A stretch of DNA of 30,654 bases from Thermomicrobiales bacterium (GTDB lineage Bacteria > Chloroflexota > Chloroflexia > Thermomicrobiales > UBA6265): NCBI GenBank assembly GCA_038232775.1, contig JBBSNJ010000001.1, forward strand, positions 1 to 30,654, written 5' to 3'. A program made the translations under genes and the position numbers. How positions within the stretch are numbered: position 1 is the first letter of the stretch; each line of letters opens with the position of its first letter. The notes beneath the pieces are model-generated. The model was not told where the DNA came from and did not search any database. It saw nothing but the letters and a program-made list of their open reading frames with translations. This document shows positions 3,531 through 14,408 of this stretch, one piece after another.

Positions 3531-3565
3531 AGTGGGTAGTGGGTAGTGGGTAGTGGGTAGTGGGT
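3531..3565. repeat. Heptamer tandem repeat (AGTGGGT)x5 in the obgE leader
   Basis: Five perfect copies plus a degenerate AGTAAGGGT, read directly from the sequence. Confidence 0.95.
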
Positions 3566-3618
3566 AGTAAGGGTCGCCGCGCGCGGTGAGGTGTGCAATC
3601 GGGAAGGGCGGCTGCCTA

Positions 3619-4475
3619 GGGTCTGTTGGCAAAGCCTACAGCCAGAGCAGGATGCAGGCGATGGTGAGGAGGGTCTCGTAGTGGGCGGCGAGCTTGTCGT
3701 AGCGAGTGGCGATGGCCCGGTGCTGCTTGAGCCGGTTGATCAGGCGCTCGACCTGGTTGCGCTCGCGGGAGGCGGCCCGGTCGAACCGGCCGTCCCGCCG
3801 CTCGTTCGATTTGCGGGGGATGACCGGGCCGATGCCGCGCCGCCGCAGCTCGGCGCGGGCGGTCCGGCTGCTGTCGCCCTTGGCCCCGGCCGCCCGCGCC
3901 GGTCGCAGCTTCGGCCGCCCGCGGCCGGGGCGCTTGACCGCCCCCGCGTCCAGCAGGGCGGGCAGGGTCTTCTGCTCGTGCCGCTGGCCGGCCGTCAGGA
4001 CCAGGGCGACCGGCTTGCCGCCGCGCTCGGCCCGGAGGTGGATTTTCGTGCTGAACCCACCGCGGGAGCGGCCGAGCGCCTGGTCGCCGCCCCCTTTTTG
4101 GCCCCGGCGGCGTGCTGGTGCGCCCGGACCGTCGTCCCGTCCACGAAGTGCAGCGACCAGTCCAGCGCGCCCCGCGCGTCGGCCGCCGCCTGGAGGGCGG
4201 CCAGGATTCGGGCCCAGACCCCGGCCCGCTGCCAGCGCCGGAACCGGGAGTACACCGTCTGCCAGTTGCCGTACCGTTCCGGCAGGTCGCGCCAGGGGGC
4301 CCCGGTCTTCAGCCGCCAGAGGATGCCGTTGAGAACCGTCCGGTGGTCCCGGTTGGGCCGCCCCGTCGCCGGCTTCGCCGGCGGCAGCAAGGGCACCAGC
4401 GTCGCGAATTGCTCGTCCGTCAGTGCGTGTCGTCGTACCATCCTCCAAGTCTACCAAGCGCTTGCCAACAGACCC
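3619..4475 (-). mobile_element. IS5-family element (IS427-like subgroup), 857 bp
   Basis: 14-bp terminal IRs GGGTCTGTTGGCAA (3619-3632) / TTGCCAACAGACCC (4462-4475). Both ends lie in a CTAG context (TA duplication, or CTAG depending on end definition). Encodes a split transposase. Confidence 0.92.
3636..4441 (-). CDS. IS5 transposase split into OrfA (3995-4441) and OrfB by a -1 frameshift; probably inactive
   Basis: OrfA has LTDEQF...WRDLPERYGNWQTVYSRF...FVDGT; OrfB has LGRSRGGFSTKIHL...ERLINRLK..RAIATRYDK. A5G5 tract at 4090-4099. The conserved GDKGY motif reads GAKGD. Confidence 0.85.
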
Positions 4476-4665
4476 TAGCCCGCTCGCACGGCGGGGAACC
4501 GGAGGCGGCTGGGCGGCGGCCGGCGCGGTGCTCCCGCTCCCGTACGGTGCCGCCGGTCCCCGTCCCATCGAGAGCAATGCGCTGGCCGAAATCGCTCTTC
4601 GATCTCGCGTCGGCACTCCCACAACCCCGGCATCGCAACCAGGGGCCAACCAAGGAGTCAAGACC

Positions 4666-5196
4666 ATGCGGCAACCGACGATGCTCTTCGTCCTACTCGG
4701 TTTCCTCGTGCTGCCGCTGGCGGTTCGCGCCCAGGAAGACGCACCGGCCCACGTCGAACGGCTCCAGGCGGGACCCTACGCCATCGACGTCGGCTTCAGC
4801 GAATGGCCGATCCGGGCCGAGCGCTCGGTCGACATCACCTTCGAACCGACCACCGGCATCGCCGGCAAGACGGCGACCGTCAAGCTGACCGGCCCCTCTG
4901 GCGAAGAGTGGGAGGAACCGCTCGGCCGTCACCCCCGCCACCGCGACCTCTGGGGCCTCGATCTGATCGCCCTCCCCGCGGCCGGACCCTGGACGATCGC
5001 CCTCACCATCGACGGCCCGGACGGCACGGGAAGCGGTCAGCTGGCGGGGATCGAGCTCCTCGGCCGGCCGGGGCCGCCGGCGGCCCCGCTGTGGCTGCTC
5101 GGGATCCTCCCCTTGATCTTCCTCGTCTGGCTGACCGTCCGTGCTTGGCGCGGCGTCCGCCCCAGCCGGCTCCCCGCGGCCCGCGGTTGGGTCTAA
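4666..5196 (+). CDS. Secreted protein with C-terminal membrane anchor (beta-rich, possibly YtkA/FixH-like fold); function unknown
   Basis: ATG at 4666 with AAGGAG SD; signal peptide ending AVRA|QE; hydrophobic helix LWLLGILPLIFLVWLTV followed by Arg-rich tail; 176 aa. Confidence 0.75.
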   Translation: MRQPTMLFVLLGFLVLPLAVRAQEDAPAHVERLQAGPYAIDVGFSEWPIRAERSVDITFEPTTGIAGKTATVKLTGPSGEEWEEPLGRHPRHRDLWGLDLIALPAAGPWTIALTIDGPDGTGSGQLAGIELLGRPGPPAAPLWLLGILPLIFLVWLTVRAWRGVRPSRLPAARGWV

Positions 5197-6117
5197 GAGG
5201 GTGTCTCGAAAGCCCTCATGCGGCGAGCCGCCGGGTCATCAGGCCGATCATCGCCAAATCGATCCAGGCCTCCTCGGTCTCTGGCAGGACCTCGTAGTCC
5301 TTGCTCAGGCGGCGGCACCGGCCCAGCCAGGCGAAGGTTCGCTCCACCACCCATCGCCGCGGCAGCAGGCGGAACCCCTTCGGCCTGGGCGCTGGCGGCG
5401 GGGCGCCCTCCGGCAGCAAGACATGGCGCAGCCCGGCGTCGGGGTGCTGGACCACCTCGACCCGCCAGCCCAATTCCTCCGCCACCCACGCCTCGAAGGA
5501 GCCCTTGTAGCCGCCGTCAACCCACATCAGCGCCAGCCGCGGGAAGCGGCCCGCCAGCGGTGCCAGGAGGCGCTTGGCGCCTTCGCGGTCGGTCACGTCG
5601 GCCGGATGGACGTGGCGGCCCAGGAGCCGGCCGCCGGTGTCGACGAGGAGGGAGCGCTTGCGCCCGGTGACCTTCTTCCCCGCGTCGTAGCCGCGCGGCC
5701 CCCCTTTTCCGTGGTCTTTACCGACTGGCTGTCGAGGATCGCCGCGCTCGGCTCCGGGTCGCGCCCAGCCTTGACCCGGACTCGCTCGCGCAGGGCGGCG
5801 TTGAGCCGCTCCCACGTCCCGTCCAGGCGCCACGCCCGGAAGTAGCCGTAGACCGTCTGCCAGGGCGGGTAGTCGTGCGGCAGGGCGCGCCAAGCGTTGC
5901 CGTTGCGCAGCGCGTAGAGGATGGCGTCGACCACCTCCCGCCGGGCGTGCTTCGCCGGCCGGCCCCCGGCCTTCGGGAGCGGCACCAGCGGCGCGAGCAA
6001 GGCCCACTGGGCGTCGGTCAGGTCGGAGGGATAGCGGCGGCGGGGCATCGCGGGGCTCCGTTCCCGAGTAGACTGCCAGCGTCTGCTGCCATCCTACCCC
6101 CCTTTCGAGACACCCTC
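5197..6117 (-). mobile_element. IS5-family element (IS1031-like subgroup), 921 bp
   Basis: 16-bp perfect terminal IRs GAGGGTGTCTCGAAAG / CTTTCGAGACACCCTC; TNA flanks (TAA 5194-5196, TCA 6118-6120). Confidence 0.92.
5216..6048 (-). CDS. IS5 transposase split into OrfA (5593-6048) and OrfB by a -1 frameshift
   Basis: [35 protein letters not shown] and [11 protein letters not shown] motifs; the DDE triad appears intact; A4G6 tract at 5699-5708. Confidence 0.88.
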
Positions 6118-9002
6118 TCAGGCGTCAGCAACGACTCGAGTGCGGACGGGGCTTCGTCGGGAGTGGCCTCGGCCTCGGCTCCGGCCTCGGACGACCCCAT
6201 AACGGAGATCGTCACTCGCGCGACTGGGTTCTCCCAACCGTGATCGTCCGCGGTCAACTCGCCGTCGCCTTCGATCCCCGGGTGGTCGGCGATCGCTTCG
6301 GGCGGAGAGGTCGCGACCTCTCCGCTGTCGACGTTGCCGTCGGGGTCGCCTTCGAGCATCACCGGGCCGAGCGCCGAGCAGGGATCCACCAGGTCCTCGC
6401 TGACCTCGGTGTTCTCTTCCCGGCCGGCGTCGTAGGCGTCGAGCTCGAACTCCATCGAGCCGCTCTCCGGCAGCTCGACGGAGTCCAAGCCGAGGAAGCC
6501 GTCGTTGGTGCAGATCAACATCGTCGCCAGCGAAAGGCGGTCGCCCGGCTCGGCCGCGATCTGGAAGGTCGCGGTGTCGGTGACGGGCATGCCGTTGACC
6601 ATCGCCTCGTTGCCCATCGGCGCCAGAGGCGCACCCACGTTGACGGCGTCCGTCACCCCATCCATCGCTTGCACGCTCTGGAAGAGGGGGATCGGGTCGC
6701 CGTCCTGGGCGATGGCTGCCAGCGCGTCGGAGGCTTCTCCGTCCACCTGGAATAGGTGGAGGTCTTCCCCGTGCGTCGCCGCGACCGGCGGCGAGAAGGG
6801 CTGTCCGTCGGTCAGGTTCTCGATCGTGACTTCGTAGGCGACGGTTTCGCCGTCGCCTTCGCCCGCCGCCGGAGTCGCCTCCTCGTCCTGGGCGACCGTC
6901 ATCGTTCCGGTCATGCCGAAGAAGCGCTGCGGACCGAGCGGGCTAAAGAACCGGTAGGCCCCCGGCTCCTCTGGCGCCGTGAAGACGAAGTAGGCATCCT
7001 CGCTCGGCACCAGCGGTCCCATCAGCGCGATCGGCCCGTCGGGCATCTCAACCGCGAGGCCCGACGGCGGCAACCCCGTGTTGGTGAGATGGATCGCGAC
7101 CTCGGCGCCCGGCGCGACCGAGAATTCGTTCGGGAAGAACGAGAAATCGTGGGTTTCGATCTCGACGAGCGTGGCATCGGCGGGCGGCAGTGCCACCGGC
7201 GCAACCAGCGCCTCGGCGGCGATTCCGCCTGTCTCGACCTGGACCGGCTCGGCAAAGACCTCGTTCGCCTCACCGTCGCCGTCCTCGGGCAGGGCGAAGG
7301 CGATCACGGCGTCGCCCGTCGGCGAGATTGAGCTGGAGCGAATCTGGTTGTTGCCGCCGAAGGTCATCACGACGTACTGGCGGCCGTCGACCATGTAGAC
7401 GGCCGGCGAACCGTTGGCGCCGCCGACCCCCTTGCGGTCCGGCTTGTAGGTCCAAAGGATGTCGCCGCTCTCGGCGTCGACGGCATTGAACTGACCATTG
7501 CTCTCGCCGAAGAAGACGAGATCGCCGGCGACGACCACTCCGGAGACGACCTTCTGGGGCGTCTCGATCTGCCAGGCGAGCTCGCCGGTGGTCGTGTCCA
7601 TCGCGTCGAAGAGGCCGTAGTTCTTGACGCCGGGGATGGCGTCGACCCCGGTCGAGCCGAGGCTGTTCTGGAGTTCTTCGGTCGCGTGGTAGAGCCATGG
7701 CTCGTAGCCGCCGGCCTGAATGTAAGCGTAGTTGGTGCGCGGGCTGTAGGCGCTGGCGGTCCACTCCGGACCGGCCTCGAAGCCGGGTTGGATCAGCAGC
7801 GGCTGCTCCTGGGGCGGCGTCCACATCGGAGCGGCTTCGATCCCCGGCGGCTGATTCTCGACCTCCTGCGGGATCAACGGTTCCGTGGCGGGGTTCGGTT
7901 GGGTCGAGGATGGATTCTGCCAGGACGGCTCGGTCGGCACCGCCTCTTCCTCGACGTCGTAGAGGGGCGTGCCGTCGCGGCGGTCGAGGATGAAGTAGTT
8001 GCCGTTCTTGTTGGCGTGCCCGATCGCGGGGGTTTCCTCCCCATCCTTCTCCAGGGTGAAGAGGTGCGCGGGCTGGACCGCGTCGTAGTCCCAGAGGTCG
8101 TGGTGGACCTCCTGGAAGTGCCAACGGTAGGCACCGGTCTCGAGATCGAGGGCGACGACCGACGTGGCGTACAGGTTGTCCCCGGCGCGGTCCGCGCCGT
8201 TCTCGTCGGGGGCGGCGTTGCCGGTGGTGATGTAGAGGAGCCCCAGGTCGGGGTCGGCCACCGGCGTCGACCAGACGGTACCGCCGCCGGTTCGCCACGA
8301 GTCGCCGGCCCAGGTCTCGTTCCCTGGTTCCCCGAAGCCGGGGATGGTGTAGAAGCGCCACAACCGCTCGCCGCTCTCGGCGTCGTAAGCGTCGACGAAG
8401 CCGCGGTTGAGGAACTCGCCGCCGGAGGCGCCGATGATCACCTTGCCGTCGACGAAGAGCGGCGCCATCGTCTCGGTCCACTTATCGCGCCAGTTGGCGA
8501 CCACCACCTGCCACGCGACCTCGCCGCTCTCCTCGTCGAGGGCGACGAGCTGGGCGTCGAGGCGACCAATGAAGACCTTGCCGTCGCCGACGGCGACGCC
8601 GCGGTTCGTCTGGCCGCAGCAGATCGCCAGCTCGTTCAAACTCGGCATGTCTTCCGGATTGTAGGTCCACTGCTCCTCGCCCGTGGCCGCGTCGATGGCG
8701 AAGACGTGGTCGTGCGGCGAGGCGACGTACATGGTGCCGTCGACGATGATCGGCTGGGCTTCGAAGGATGTGCTCTGGTTTGCGACGCCAGTGTGGAAGA
8801 CCCACGCCGGTTCGAGCTCCTCGACGTTGTCGGGGGCGATCTGGTCGATATCGACGTACCGCATGCCGCCGAGGTCGTTGCCGTAGTAGTTCCAGTCGAG
8901 CCCGTCGTCCGACCCAGTTGTTCCGTCCTGGGCCAGCGTCGGTGAGGGGAGCGCCAGCAGGAGTAAGGCGAAAGCGAGCGTTGCTCGGTGGGCTCTCCGC
9001 AT
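6018..9002 (-). CDS. Secreted PQQ-dependent dehydrogenase (alcohol dehydrogenase-like) fused to a cupredoxin-like domain and a spondin_N-like domain; last ~33 codons read into the IS
   Basis: ATG at 9002 with AAGGAAGG SD; signal peptide ending TLA|QD; repeated PQQ beta-propeller W motifs; ICCG, GGEF, TGN and HDLWDYD; cupredoxin-like segment about 7170-6895; spondin-like YEVTIENLT...PFSP...TNDGF...YDAG about 6840-6205. Confidence 0.85.
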
Positions 9003-9451
9003 GGTCGGGATTCCTTCCTTGATCTGCGTGGCTGAGGCGGGTCGGTCGGTCTTCGTCAAAGCCCCCGTTTCTCCGCGCTCCTCGCGGTGCGGCCCGTGCC
9101 CCACGTCATCGTGGCGCGAATTGGAACCGCAGAACCGTCGGTGCCTCCGGGTGTGCGCCGAGATGGCGAATGAGTTCCACCAGCCCGCCACCATGCCGCA
9201 AGTCAGCGCCGTTCGACAACCCTCATCCGTGGTCTGGGGATGATTCGTGGAGGCCCTGAGTCTCCCCCTCGGCCCCCTTTCTCGGGGCGTGGGAGCGAAG
9301 GGAGGGCGAGCTGCGCTCCCTCGAACTCCGCTTCGGGGGGCGACCGCCGCCGGGATCACGAACACCGAGCGCCTCGGCGTGGAGTGTTGCCGCCCCGTGG
9401 AGAGGCGACGGCGCGGTGCCCACACCCCACCCCCCGAGCCTACCGGCTGGG

Positions 9452-9515
9452 AGTGAACGCGCCGGTGGCCAGTGGTGGACGATTCGGTGAACGACGGTGA
9501 ACGCAATGGTGAACG
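9452..9515. promoter_or_regulatory. Phased GGTGAACG direct-repeat array, candidate OmpR/PhoB-type binding site
   Basis: Perfect units at 9486, 9496 and 9508; variants at 9474 (GGTGGACG), 9452 (AGTGAACG) and 9464 (weak); spacings 12/10/12/10/12. Confidence 0.55.
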
Positions 9516-9816
9516 AGCCCCGCTGTTGTCCTAGTATTCGGCCAATGGCGCGGCACGAGCGGTCGGTGCGGGGCGGGAGTGCCCGAGCTCGCCGCTCGAT
9601 GACGGGCACGCCGTGTCGCGCCAAGATCGAGCCCGCGGCGCTCGCTGAGTGAGGGCCCTGGCTCCCTTCCAGGCGGCACCAGCGGGTCGGCGCGCCAAAG
9701 GGACCCTTTGGCGGGGAAGGAGCGGCCCGGCGACGCCTTCCCCCGATGAGGGACACCGGGGCGGTGAGCGATGAGCGGGGACGCGGTAGCGAGGGAACGG
9801 GACGCTGAGCGCGGAA

Positions 9817-10509
9817 TCAGCGTGCGGCGGCGAAGCGGTAGCCGACGCCCCATTCGGTCCAGATGTAACGGGGGTGTTCGGCGTCGTCGCCGAGCTTGCT
9901 CCGCAATCGCCGCACGAATACCTTCAAGTACTGGACGTCGTGGACGTAGGCGGTCCCCCACACCCGATTCAGCAGGAGCTGGTGCGGCAGGACGGTACCG
10001 GCGTGCCGGACCAACTCCTCCAGCAGGCGGTATTCGGTCGGCGTCAGCCGCACGATTTCCCCGCGAAGACGAACCTCCTGGGTCGAGAAATCGAGCGAGA
10101 AGTCGTCGCGCACGAACGACGGAGGCGCCTCGATCGTCCCGGTGGACCGGCGGAGCAGCGCTCGCAGGCGGGCGAAGAGCTCCAGAGGGTCGAAGGGCTT
10201 GGTCAGGTAGTCGTCCGCCCCGAACTCGAGCGCCCGCACCTTGTCGATCGTCGCGTCGCGGACGGTCAGCATCATGATCGGAACGTCGGAATCCTCCCGA
10301 ATTCGGCGACAGACCGCGAGCCCGTCGGGCGGCGGCATCGCGACATCGAGCACGATCAGGTCTGCCCCCTCCTCGGCGAAGGAGCGGAGCGCCTCTTCAC
10401 CGGAGGCGGCGATCGTCACCCGGCACCCCGGCCAGGTCATGCGGGCACCGAAGGCGATCGCCTCGGCCACGTCGCGGGCGTCCTCGGCGATCAAGACCCG
10501 CGGCGTCAT
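9817..10509 (-). CDS. OmpR/KdpE-type response regulator
   Basis: Receiver domain (IAED, LDVAMP, DDYLTKPF) and winged helix (RRLRSKL...WGVGYRF); ATG at 10509 overlaps the kinase TGA (ATGA); 230 aa. Confidence 0.93.
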   Translation of the reverse strand: MTPRVLIAEDARDVAEAIAFGARMTWPGCRVTIAASGEEALRSFAEEGADLIVLDVAMPPPDGLAVCRRIREDSDVPIMMLTVRDATIDKVRALEFGADDYLTKPFDPLELFARLRALLRRSTGTIEAPPSFVRDDFSLDFSTQEVRLRGEIVRLTPTEYRLLEELVRHAGTVLPHQLLLNRVWGTAYVHDVQYLKVFVRRLRSKLGDDAEHPRYIWTEWGVGYRFAAAR

Positions 10510-11789
10510 GCCAGCCCTCCGGCTTCCATCGCCGCCCAGCACGGCAAGGCGACGTGGAAGGTCGTGCCCCCGCCGGGTCGGGACTCGGCCCACACCCCGC
10601 CCCCGTGCAGCTCGACCAGGGCGCGCGTGATCGCCAGCCCCAAGCCGGAGCCGCCGCCCTCGCCGCTGAGGCGATAGAAACGTTGGAAGATCGTCTCCCG
10701 CGCCCATGACGGGATGCCGGGGCCCTCGTCGGAGACGAGGACCCGGATCTCGTCACCCACCCGGCGCCCGCTGACGTGGATACGGGTGCCGGGCGGGGAG
10801 TGAAGATGGGCGTTGGCCAGGAGATTGAGGAAGATCTGCTCCAACCGCGACGGATCGCCCGCGCATGGCAGGGGCTCATGGAGTTCCAGCTCCAGCGTCT
10901 GCTCTTTCCCTTCGATCAAGGGGTAGACCGCGGCCGTCGCGCCAGCGACGACGGTGCGCAGGTCGAGCGGCGTCCGGTCCAAACGGAGGGTTTCGGCATC
11001 GAGCCGGTTGGCGACGAGCAAGTCGTCGATCAACGCGCCGAGCCGCTCGATGTTGCGTCGGCCATTGGCCAGCAACGCCCGTTCGTCGGTCCGCAGCCCG
11101 CCGCCGATGCTGGCGTCGAGCAGGATGAGCGCGGCCCGGGCGGCGGTCAGGGGGGTCCGTAGGTCGTGGGAGACGGAGGCAACGAAGTCGGCCCGGAGGC
11201 GGTCGAGCCCTTCCAACCGCGTCGTTTCGTCGAGCATCGATTGGGCGGCGTCTTGCTCCTGGTCGAGGCGCCGCGTCAGTGTCCCCATGCCGACCCCGAC
11301 CAGACCGAGCACGACCAGGCGGGCGCTCATGGCCCGGAAGTCGGCACCCGAGCCGGTCCAGCCCGGCAACGATGGTTCGACGACCAGGGCGATGGTGGCG
11401 AGGGCACCGCTGTAGAGCAGGGTGCCGGGCAGCGTCATGAAGGCGGCCGTTTGGACCGCCGCCAGCACCAGGAGCGTGAAGAGGGGGCCGCCTGGTCCCG
11501 GACAGCCGAAGTAGACGAGCCCGACCGCCGGCAGATCGAGCAGCGCGGCGCAGGCGAAGAAGCGCCGGTCGGGGATGCGGGAGCGGAGGAGATCGAGGAG
11601 CAGATTGTAGCCGGCGAAAATCGCGACGAGTGCCCACTCCGGCAGACCCGTCCGTCCCGCCGAAGGTTGGGTCAGCGAAATCAAGAGCAGGGCCGCGATC
11701 GTCACCCAGCGCAAATGGGCGATCGACCGCACCAGGAAGCGGTCGTGCGCGGGTTTGCCGATAAATTGGATCGCGGCTAGCTGTCGCAT
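10506..11789 (-). CDS. Membrane-bound sensor histidine kinase
   Basis: Multi-TM N-terminus, H-box SHDLRTPLT, N-box NLLANA, G-boxes DEGPG/GSGLGL. Start uncertain (ATG 11789 or GTG 11837). Confidence 0.9.
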   Translation of the reverse strand: MRQLAAIQFIGKPAHDRFLVRSIAHLRWVTIAALLLISLTQPSAGRTGLPEWALVAIFAGYNLLLDLLRSRIPDRRFFACAALLDLPAVGLVYFGCPGPGGPLFTLLVLAAVQTAAFMTLPGTLLYSGALATIALVVEPSLPGWTGSGADFRAMSARLVVLGLVGVGMGTLTRRLDQEQDAAQSMLDETTRLEGLDRLRADFVASVSHDLRTPLTAARAALILLDASIGGGLRTDERALLANGRRNIERLGALIDDLLVANRLDAETLRLDRTPLDLRTVVAGATAAVYPLIEGKEQTLELELHEPLPCAGDPSRLEQIFLNLLANAHLHSPPGTRIHVSGRRVGDEIRVLVSDEGPGIPSWARETIFQRFYRLSGEGGGSGLGLAITRALVELHGGGVWAESRPGGGTTFHVALPCWAAMEAGGLA

Positions 11790-11889
11790 TGGCGTCGAGA
11801 CCGAGTTGGCACCAACCGGCACCCACGGAGCGTTCACCGCCGGTGAGCATAACCGAATCGCGCAAGTTCGGGAATGAGTGCGTTATGGT

Positions 11890-14140: not shown

Positions 14141-14408
14141 GGTCGTGCTAGATGGGGAGTTAGCGGTGCCCTGTACCCGCAACCCGCTACAGCGGGGTCG
14201 AATTCCCCCTCGAGGCCCGACCCTGTGGGACTGGCGGCGCCACGTAGCGTTGATGGAAGGGTCCCGCGCGGCGAGGAACGGCGAACCCGGTCAGGACCGG
14301 AAGGTAGCAGCCGTAAGTCGAACTCCTCGGGTGATGCGGGGTTGCCTGCCCGGAGCCAACGGGCGTCGAAGAAGCCGGAGGGTTGCGGTCGACAGGGGGT
14401 GCACGGCC
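14141..14408 (+). ncRNA. ffs: Large bacterial signal recognition particle RNA (scRNA type, with Alu domain)
   Basis: Helix-8 motif TCAGGACCGGAAGGTAGCAGC at 14291-14311; Bacillus-like 5' Alu region GTGCTAGATGGGGAGTTAGCGGTGCCCTGTACCCGCAACCCGCT; 5' GGTCGTGC pairs with 3' GCACGGCC. Confidence 0.92.

Follow-up and report, generated by a model that had tools for sequence, protein, structure and literature searches.

A predicted surface quinoprotein dehydrogenase with a copper-less cupredoxin-fold domain and a spondin module in a Thermomicrobiales bacterium

We analysed a 30,654-nucleotide stretch of DNA from a Thermomicrobiales bacterium (Chloroflexota; GenBank assembly GCA_038232775.1, contig JBBSNJ010000001.1, positions 1 to 30,654), hereafter the window, and focused on a single minus-strand gene at positions 6018–9002. 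Its product joins a pyrroloquinoline quinone (PQQ) propeller of the alcohol dehydrogenase type to a cupredoxin-fold domain and a spondin domain. Sequence comparisons indicate that the clade to which the protein belongs lost three of the four copper ligands of the cupredoxin domain, once, and that the domain was nevertheless retained under strong constraint. We propose that the protein is a surface quinoprotein dehydrogenase with a copper-less relic domain and a spondin binding module, placed under two-component control, and we put the probability of this proposal as a whole at roughly 55%.

Results

The open reading frame (ORF) runs from an ATG at 9002, which has AAGGAAGGA directly before it, to a stop codon at 6018–6020 and encodes 994 amino acids. 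The GC content at its three codon positions (0.67/0.50/0.86) identifies it as a real frame. From the N terminus, the protein consists of a signal peptide, a PQQ propeller, a cupredoxin-fold domain, a domain of Spondin_N/F-spondin fold and a 33-residue tail derived from an insertion sequence (IS). An original prediction made from the letters of the window had proposed a single frame joining a signal peptide, a PQQ propeller and cupredoxin-like and spondin_N-like domains; Pfam and NCBIfam profiles, AlphaFold2 models and Foldseek searches confirmed this, and the acidic Ala/Thr/Pro-rich linkers described between the domains are present. The predicted signal peptide covers residues 1–24 (8931–9002, minus strand like all parts of the gene) and shows a basic N-region, a hydrophobic core and the residues TLA before QD; residues 3–16 are modelled as a helix and the cleavage site is putative. 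Homologues carry Sec, lipoprotein or Tat-like leaders.

The propeller is eight-bladed (residues 31–575, 7278–8912) and matches Pfam PQQ with 356.7 bits (cut-off 26.7). Its best sequence match in the PDB is PedH (6zcw, E 6e-73), followed by quinohemoprotein alcohol dehydrogenases (ADHs) and XoxF. In the full-length model the propeller is confident, with predicted scores in the local distance difference test (pLDDT) mostly >85, and the top Foldseek matches of this model are all PQQ-dependent alcohol or methanol dehydrogenases (1kv9, 1yiq, 1kb0, the membrane ADH 8gy2 and PedH 6zcw). The hallmarks of quino-ADHs were found where they had been predicted, namely the vicinal Cys128–Cys129 (8616–8621), Glu196 within GGEF (8412–8423) and Asn262 within TGN (8217–8225). 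Like these, Asp305 and Asp307 of the motif W-D-Y-D (residues 304–307, 8082–8093) align on the corresponding residues of PedH, the motif falling on its WDFD with Asp305 as the catalytic residue. Across 39 relatives, the Cys pair, Asn262, Asp305, Asp307 and Lys332 are invariant and Glu196 is nearly so. An Asp two residues after the catalytic Asp is experimentally required for lanthanide coordination in XoxF1 and ExaF (bioRxiv 10.1101/2020.02.25.964783). Judging from these residues, the most likely substrate is an alcohol, an aldehyde or a sugar, oxidised with the help of PQQ and a lanthanide (or Ca2+), and we rate the odds of lanthanide use as somewhat better than even.

Also in line with the original prediction, the protein contains no CxxCH motif. 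None was found either when all six frames of the window were searched. A cytochrome c domain, the hallmark of type II quinohemoprotein ADHs, is not present in the protein, the domain C-terminal to the propeller having a cupredoxin fold instead (residues 609–703, 6894–7178). Pfam Cupredoxin_1 scores 18.4 bits here, below the cut-off of 27. We modelled residues 576–965 with AlphaFold2 from 38 homologous segments (mean pLDDT 80), and Foldseek matched the model to 4hcf, auracyanin (6kol/1qhq) and CuA domains with E values of 5e-7 to 4e-6, a probability of 1.00 and target template-modelling (TM) scores of 0.6–0.8. The two domains are joined by a linker (residues 576–608, 7179–7277) with a conserved QVETG motif. 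The linker reaches a pLDDT of only 57–65 when modelled without the propeller versus 88–95 with it, which suggests that it packs on the propeller like the linker of quinohemoproteins.

Alignment with ligand-bearing relatives (L012, L019, L029, P0013 and P0015) showed that the copper site is degenerate. The first His is replaced by a Ser (in PPSG), and within the ligand loop (6912–6950) the Cys is Ser687, the second His is Gln692 and the Met is kept as Met697; Cys is absent from the protein between residues 130 and 830. With the Met as its sole remaining ligand, the domain cannot carry electrons as a blue-copper protein does. Purifying selection nevertheless acts on it as strongly as on the catalytic domain: between the window and the related locus L001, the ratio of nonsynonymous to synonymous substitution rates (dN/dS) is 0.124 for the cupredoxin-like domain, 0.126 for the PQQ domain, 0.163 for the spondin domain and from 0.26 to >0.5 for the linkers.

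To place this domain in its family, we scanned 185,579 species genomes, which gave 79 loci, and classified the C-terminal part in 80 loci, one of them from a relative's genome. Proteins with 40–43% identity to the window's propeller mostly carry a cytochrome c domain (Bacillaceae, Gammaproteobacteria and others), with no C-terminal part in a few. At 43–47% identity, the C-terminal part is either missing or a canonical blue-copper domain with the motif PHS...FCVPHPFM (Thermomicrobiales, Dormibacterota); at 59–65% we found L012 and L016, whose copper sites are intact, and at 62–81% the ligand-less form, in nine loci. We computed a maximum-likelihood tree from the propeller alone, which makes it independent of the C-terminal trait. 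In this tree, all 15 ligand-less proteins form one clade, with 99 in the Shimodaira–Hasegawa-like approximate likelihood ratio test (SH-aLRT), and the clade is sister to L012 with its intact copper site (SH-aLRT 92). The two are nested in a group with further copper-bearing clades, and the haem-c fusions lie opposite, as the outgroup (SH-aLRT 100). The simplest history read from these sequences is that a blue-copper domain replaced the haem domain, and that the copper site was later lost once and the domain retained. The cupredoxin-like domain of the window would accordingly descend from a true type-1 copper domain. An exhaustive library search with the last blade and the cupredoxin domain returned 12 representatives at E ≤ 1e-30, ligand-less and ligand-bearing ones among them, and the nearest free-standing relatives of the cupredoxin domain are small type-1 cupredoxins with the motif CPVGNHRxxGM. 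The nearest homologues of the protein come from metagenome-assembled genomes of Chloroflexota; the PQQ::blue-copper lineage is found mainly in Chloroflexota and Dormibacterota, and the ligand-less sub-lineage also in Bryobacterales. Rather than the stand-alone, unfamiliar invention that it had first been taken for, the protein is the tip of a wider PQQ-dehydrogenase::cupredoxin family.

PQQ dehydrogenases with an intact His-Cys-His-Met cupredoxin were seen in L012, L016, L019–L021, L029, L089 and P0039. These sisters belong to the same propeller clade as the window's protein and have the same linker and domain order, but they keep the pattern His...Cys-x(2-4)-His-x(2-4)-Met, can hold blue copper and lack the spondin module. 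L016 contains two intact cupredoxin domains separated by Gln/Asn-rich linkers, and one such fusion comes from a genome (G013) of the same GTDB family as the window's genome. In the searchable full-text literature, which leaves most subscription journals outside, we found no description of these fusions, and judging from their sequences they look like an undescribed class of ‘quino-cupro-proteins’. The third place in the chain, held by the spondin module in the window, is taken in other members of the clade by a fasciclin domain, an Ig-like domain, a lipoprotein signal, a sortase-type signal or nothing.

The spondin module (residues 722–934, 6201–6839) matches Pfam Spond_N with 29.9 bits (cut-off 24) and the NCBIfam spondin model NF038123 with 141 bits (cut-off 40). 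Its fold, a C2-like eight-stranded sandwich, is taken from the model of residues 576–965, the spondin part being poor in the full-length model, and matches F-spondin (3q13, E 1.7e-11) and mindin (3d34, E 7.7e-11). Both C-terminal segments, then, model as the cupredoxin and spondin folds that had been claimed for them. A PDB search with the sequence of the single module gave no match, whereas a profile of 32 modules reached mindin and F-spondin (E 5e-6 and 3e-5, respectively), aligning NDGF on PDWF and YDAGrE on YDAGTD. The side-chain Ca2+ ligands of F-spondin are D325 and D354, located in the PSPDW- and DAGTD-motifs (PMC3117680). The corresponding putative ligands here are Asp834 (6501–6503) and Asp858 (6429–6431), and across the 32 modules the first is invariant and the second nearly so. 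Given this conservation, the Ca2+ site is probably retained, and a disulfide between Cys831 and Cys875 is likely.

The module is 50–60% identical to modules in many Chloroflexota proteins, which contain one to three copies each and combine them with DUF302, DUF7282, CHRD, DUF4331, SLH, multicopper-oxidase-like, blue-copper and six-bladed dehydrogenase-like parts. In the window's own genome it occurs in this gene only. A search of 5.8 billion protein clusters found a C-terminal spondin on this enzyme in just two other proteins, P0003 and P0006, which form one tip clade with the window's protein; the three-domain architecture, unfamiliar to the original prediction, is very rare. The protein-atlas contained only low-scoring, unnamed Spond_N clusters. 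In addition, L009 carries an N-terminal spondin on the same enzyme together with a sortase-type signal, and P0012 an N-terminal spondin with DUF302 and DUF7282. These distributions characterise the spondin domain as a mobile surface module of Chloroflexota that was joined to this enzyme at least twice. In the same literature, we found no description of bacterial spondin domains, of PQQ-cupredoxin fusions or of their combination, and a 2026 preprint on lanthanide-binding PQQ enzymes, Chloroflexi ones included, mentions neither cupredoxin nor spondin.

Two further proteins, P0020 and P0022, have six-bladed dehydrogenase-like propellers (weak matches to GSDH and DUF7133) with the same spondin at the C terminus, so that the module has been joined to both propeller classes of sugar/alcohol dehydrogenase-like proteins. 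Sortase-type sorting signals (MPHTGG, LPNTGG and MPRTGG, followed by a membrane helix and basic residues) were seen at the C termini of L009 (ORF 2–2527), L011 and L012. The original prediction had suggested that the spondin domain could recruit metal or tether the enzyme to the cell surface. Its Ca2+ ligands are conserved, and metal recruitment for the enzyme would be a putative role. Pure tethering is doubtful: the module also stands beside SLH domains and sortase signals, and we therefore read it as a binding module rather than the anchor itself.

The window's genome (4.26 Mb in 962 contigs, 69% complete) contains two sortases, and among the control genomes the sortase family occurred only in Gram-positive monoderms. 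The PQQ biosynthesis gene pqqC was not found in this genome or in any of 40 relatives of the order, of which 26 are at least 90% complete and one (G010) is unpublished and used for counts only. The search itself works, as pqqC was found above the cut-off in 13 of 301 genomes of the phylum, our positive control. It was also not found in five genomes with haem-c or cupredoxin relatives of the enzyme, a result that says little by itself. Surface enzymes of bacteria that do not produce PQQ, such as Gcd of Escherichia coli, use scavenged PQQ, as the 2026 preprint also states. As pqqC was not found in the genome or its relatives, PQQ is probably taken from the surroundings, and together with the sortases this points to a surface enzyme that probably uses scavenged PQQ and metal. 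Elsewhere in the genome, we found at least eight Copper-bind matches and three cytochrome c matches above the family cut-off. None of these free blue-copper proteins and c-type cytochromes is linked to the PQQ gene, and most of the cupredoxin-bearing relatives likewise have no CxxCH beside the gene.

Upstream of the PQQ gene, on the same strand, lie an OmpR/PhoB-family response regulator of 230 amino acids (9817–10509) and a histidine kinase (10506–11837; start at GTG 11837 or ATG 11789) with some six membrane helices and without a large domain on the outside. The original prediction had associated this pair with the fusion gene, and the association held: kinase and regulator are kept beside the gene in L001, L008 and L016, with the regulator upstream of it. 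The gap between regulator and gene contains direct repeats with the core GTTCACC (9452–9514, minus strand), spaced by 12/10/12/22 nt and located 450–510 nt upstream of the start codon. GTTCACC occurs nine times in the window versus 2.8 expected, with three copies within 29 nt. A similar cluster is found in the same gap of L001, and in a DNA alignment of the two gaps the GTTCACC units alone are conserved. We infer from this pattern that the repeats are candidate binding sites of the OmpR-type regulator. An extra GTTCACC unit lies at 11832–11838 on the plus strand, opposite to the cluster and near the 5' end of the kinase gene, and hints at autoregulation of the two-component operon. The gap upstream of the PQQ gene, 813 nt long, contains neither an Rfam match nor a conserved ORF, and a scan of 5800–9900 for sigma-70 promoters and terminators gave nothing above chance.

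Two small genes accompany the PQQ gene in related loci. An ORF of about 85 amino acids with two Cys (GERC, TWCDDP) and no Pfam match lies just upstream of the gene in L001 (1772–2116), L008 (6659–7027) and L019 (425–685, = L089), next to copper-bearing and ligand-less forms alike; it was not detectable in the gap of the window. A protein of about 150 amino acids with four membrane helices and conserved His residues was seen beside ligand-less PQQ::cupredoxin genes in three loci from different lineages (L008 7031–7741, L009 3247–3816, L017 10775–11299). It has only a weak match to DUF1440, is a possible membrane partner and was not found in the window's own genome with one query.

The gene is joined at its 3' end to an IS5-family element (5194–6120, minus strand) with DUF4096 and DDE_Tnp_1 frames and inverted repeats of 17–20 nt (5193–5212 and 6102–6121). 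Position 6117, previously given as the lower bound of the frame, is the junction with this element. The foreign tail (residues 962–994, 6021–6119) is translated from the junction and the IS end, and similarity to the closest relative ends before it, at ‘...LLTP’; residue 961 was most likely the last one of the native protein. The element is placed on the stop codon of the PQQ gene and flanked by TAA on one side and TCA on the other. With TAA on both flanks, the PQQ gene would terminate in TAG at the junction, and one base change turns this into GAG. The plus-strand neighbour at 4663–5196 ends in the same TAA, such that the insertion point coincides exactly with the overlapping stops of the two convergent genes. 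The insertion and one base change swapped the stop codon for 33 foreign residues and touched no domain. We considered a rearrangement as the cause of the unequal flanks and rejected it, landing on the interlocked stops followed by a TAG to GAG change being the simpler explanation.

A second IS of the same family, again with DUF4096 and DDE_Tnp_1 in two frames, lies at 3611–4483 (inverted repeats 3611–3632/4462–4483), and the stretch of 0.7 kb that the two elements enclose lies between obg and the PQQ gene. The convergent ORF at 4663–5196 within this stretch encodes 177 amino acids that include a signal peptide and a single C-terminal membrane helix. Pfam gave no match for it, and related loci lack a counterpart beside the PQQ gene. 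Just outside the left IS, by the start region of obg, is a short tandem repeat of AGTGGGT (3531–3561). The rest of the window is housekeeping: obg, an acyltransferase, signal recognition particle (SRP) RNA, sdhAB, CoA-transferases, tctAB and a DinG-like helicase. The SRP RNA, of the bacterial large type (14143–14406, plus strand; RF01854, 174 bits), is the sole Rfam match in the whole window.

Discussion

In our proposal, the gene product is an exported dehydrogenase, a quinoprotein of the type II quinohemoprotein ADH lineage, which would act outside the membrane of a monoderm, sortase-bearing cell. Its propeller keeps all PQQ- and metal-holding residues of PedH/XoxF-type enzymes, the extra Asp included. 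Classically, the electron acceptor of PQQ alcohol dehydrogenases is a cytochrome c, either separate or fused. In the place of the haem-c domain of quinohemoproteins, this protein has the relic of a blue-copper domain; given the strong constraint on it and the apparent packing of its linker on the propeller, we regard it as a structural or docking part without a redox role. Electrons would then leave to a separate carrier, for example the free blue-copper proteins or c-type cytochromes of the host, and this step is the weakest link of the proposal. The spondin module may bind a target in the cell envelope, a polymer or a mineral in a Ca2+-dependent manner, and the adjacent OmpR-type pair, given its conserved linkage, would control expression through the GTTCACC repeats.

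Several observations weigh against this reading. A non-redox domain at the former position of electron exit leaves the exit path unexplained, and the search for CxxCH in six frames found no electron-carrier gene in the window. The propeller scores 419.2 bits against the NCBIfam alcohol dehydrogenase model TIGR03075, under its cut-off of 480, and the next best model is an ‘empty quinoprotein’ family; the scores place it in a divergent clade outside the core membership of TIGR03075. As for lanthanide use, the Asp-x-Asp pattern is also present in E. coli glucose dehydrogenase Gcd (HHDLWDMD); in the same alignment, however, neither the Cys-Cys pair nor the Glu and Asn are found in Gcd, whose metal site is therefore different. 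The spondin module co-occurs with true anchors (SLH, sortase signal), the repeats lie far from the start codon for an activator site and were not seen in L008, and the incompleteness of the host genome limits the weight of the negative search for pqqC in it.

The acidic surroundings of the spondin Ca2+ site offer another role for the module. This exposed site, in which the conserved ligand Asp residues are flanked by a conserved acidic run with extra Glu/Asp around DAGxE, could trap lanthanide or calcium, or fix the enzyme to phosphate or lanthanide minerals, and so feed the metal site of the propeller in a cell with no outer-membrane uptake system. The independent fusions of the module to eight-bladed PQQ enzymes (the window, L009, P0012) and six-bladed propellers (P0020, P0022) agree with such a supply of metal, as does the lanthanide-marker Asp in the enzyme; the repeats moreover resemble PHO-box cores, and the best NCBIfam matches of the kinase are PnpS and PhoR, both below cut-off. 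However, the module is mostly combined with parts other than PQQ enzymes (CHRD, DUF302, DUF4331, SLH), most members of the enzyme clade lack the module, and its tandem copies look more like binding modules of the avidity type. We consider metal supply unlikely.

That the protein no longer uses PQQ, and serves as a surface binding or scaffold protein or with another cofactor, appears improbable. The idea draws on pqqC not being found in 41 genomes of the order, on the disabled electron-exit domain and on a score of 342 bits against TIGR04528 (‘acido-empty-quinoprotein’), the ADH model being under its cut-off. Yet that score is far below the model's own cut-off of 650, the residues of the PQQ and metal sites, the strained Cys-Cys included, are invariant across the 39 relatives, and the dN/dS of the propeller is low; an enzyme at the surface of a non-producer may, like Gcd, obtain its PQQ from outside. 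A still more doubtful alternative retains a metal or redox centre in the cupredoxin-like domain, such as a Cys-less copper site of the kind seen in FtrB/EfeO that would use Met, Gln/Glu and His638 and still pass electrons. Foldseek does match the domain to the Cys-less Brucella FtrB (8vuk, TM 0.80) and to the metal-binding Cupredoxin_1 protein 4hcf, its constraint is strong, and Met697, Met701, Gln692 and His638 are nearly invariant. But His638 is also present in the ligand-bearing L012 and is therefore not a replacement ligand, some members have Glu in place of Gln692 and P0033 has Leu in place of Met697, and no new cluster of His, Cys or Asp has appeared. Finally, we give very little credence to a decaying gene whose stop codon and terminator were taken by the IS and whose tailed product is unstable or not made, for even with a second IS 0.7 kb away and the two small neighbour genes of relatives missing from the window, the 2.9-kb frame is intact with a GC3 of 0.86, no domain is hit, the tail follows a naturally disordered acidic linker and dN/dS against L001 is low in all three domains.

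The surface dehydrogenase that we favour can be compared with several known systems. The best structural matches of the full-length model are the type II quinohemoprotein ADHs, namely ADH IIB (1KV9) and ADH IIG (1YIQ) of Pseudomonas putida HK5 and the quinohemoprotein ethanol dehydrogenase QH-EDH (1KB0) of Comamonas testosteroni, which share its one-chain plan of a signal peptide, an eight-bladed Cys-Cys propeller, a wrapping linker and a small C-terminal domain. The window's protein differs from them in that this domain has a cupredoxin rather than a cytochrome c fold and no redox cofactor site, and in having the additional spondin module and the Asp-x-Asp pattern. With PedH (6ZCW), ExaF and XoxF it has in common the Glu, the Asn, the catalytic Asp and the extra Asp, at an identity of only ~30–40%. 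PedH, ExaF and XoxF each consist of a single domain, are located in the periplasm and deliver their electrons to a separate cytochrome c whose gene lies nearby, whereas the window's enzyme has two extra fused domains, no cytochrome gene nearby and a host that seemingly does not make PQQ. PedH is under the two-component system PedS2/PedR2. A similar logic may apply here, as kinase and regulator are adjacent to the gene in the window, L001, L008 and L016, although the window's kinase is without a large sensor domain.

The spondin module has the fold of the F-spondin and mindin FS domains (3Q13, 3D34) and of bacterial NF038123, and its PSPDW-like and DAGTD-like motifs contain both side-chain Ca2+ ligands. 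The animal domains belong to matrix proteins that also contain reelin-N and TSR domains, and their ligands are integrins, membranes or lipopolysaccharide; the window's module is attached to an oxidoreductase and has a different disulfide pattern with one Cys pair. Brucella FtrB (8VUK) and the Bacillus anthracis Cupredoxin_1 protein (4HCF/4HCG) resemble the window's domain in having a small cupredoxin fold (TM 0.75–0.80 to target) and no type-1 site, but they bind Cu or Zn via other residues, and the window has no comparable conserved ligand set.

A bolder and, taken as a whole, improbable picture would combine two claims. One is that the ‘quino-cupro-proteins’ of the wider family constitute a third class of PQQ ADHs, in which a fused blue-copper domain does the job of haem c; the other is that the window's branch silenced the copper and took up a spondin that binds Ca2+/Ln3+. 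Together they would describe a self-sufficient surface enzyme of a PQQ-auxotrophic monoderm, with the spondin capturing lanthanide or clamping the enzyme to phosphate or rare-earth minerals and a PHO-box-like circuit switching it on under metal or phosphate limitation.

The analysis describes a lineage in which a blue-copper domain appears to have been fused in the place of cytochrome c, and a sub-lineage in which the copper site is gone yet the domain is constrained. Compared with the window's gene, the parent family with copper-bearing fusions is arguably the lead of greater importance. This raises the question of the route by which the electrons exit and of the role of a disabled carrier domain. 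Bacterial spondin domains, so far without a known function, gain a defined enzymatic partner, and single-chain, cofactor-reconstitutable oxidoreductases of this kind may be of use on electrodes. For the organism and its relatives, the finding extends predicted lanthanide/PQQ enzymology to monoderm cells that apparently do not make PQQ.

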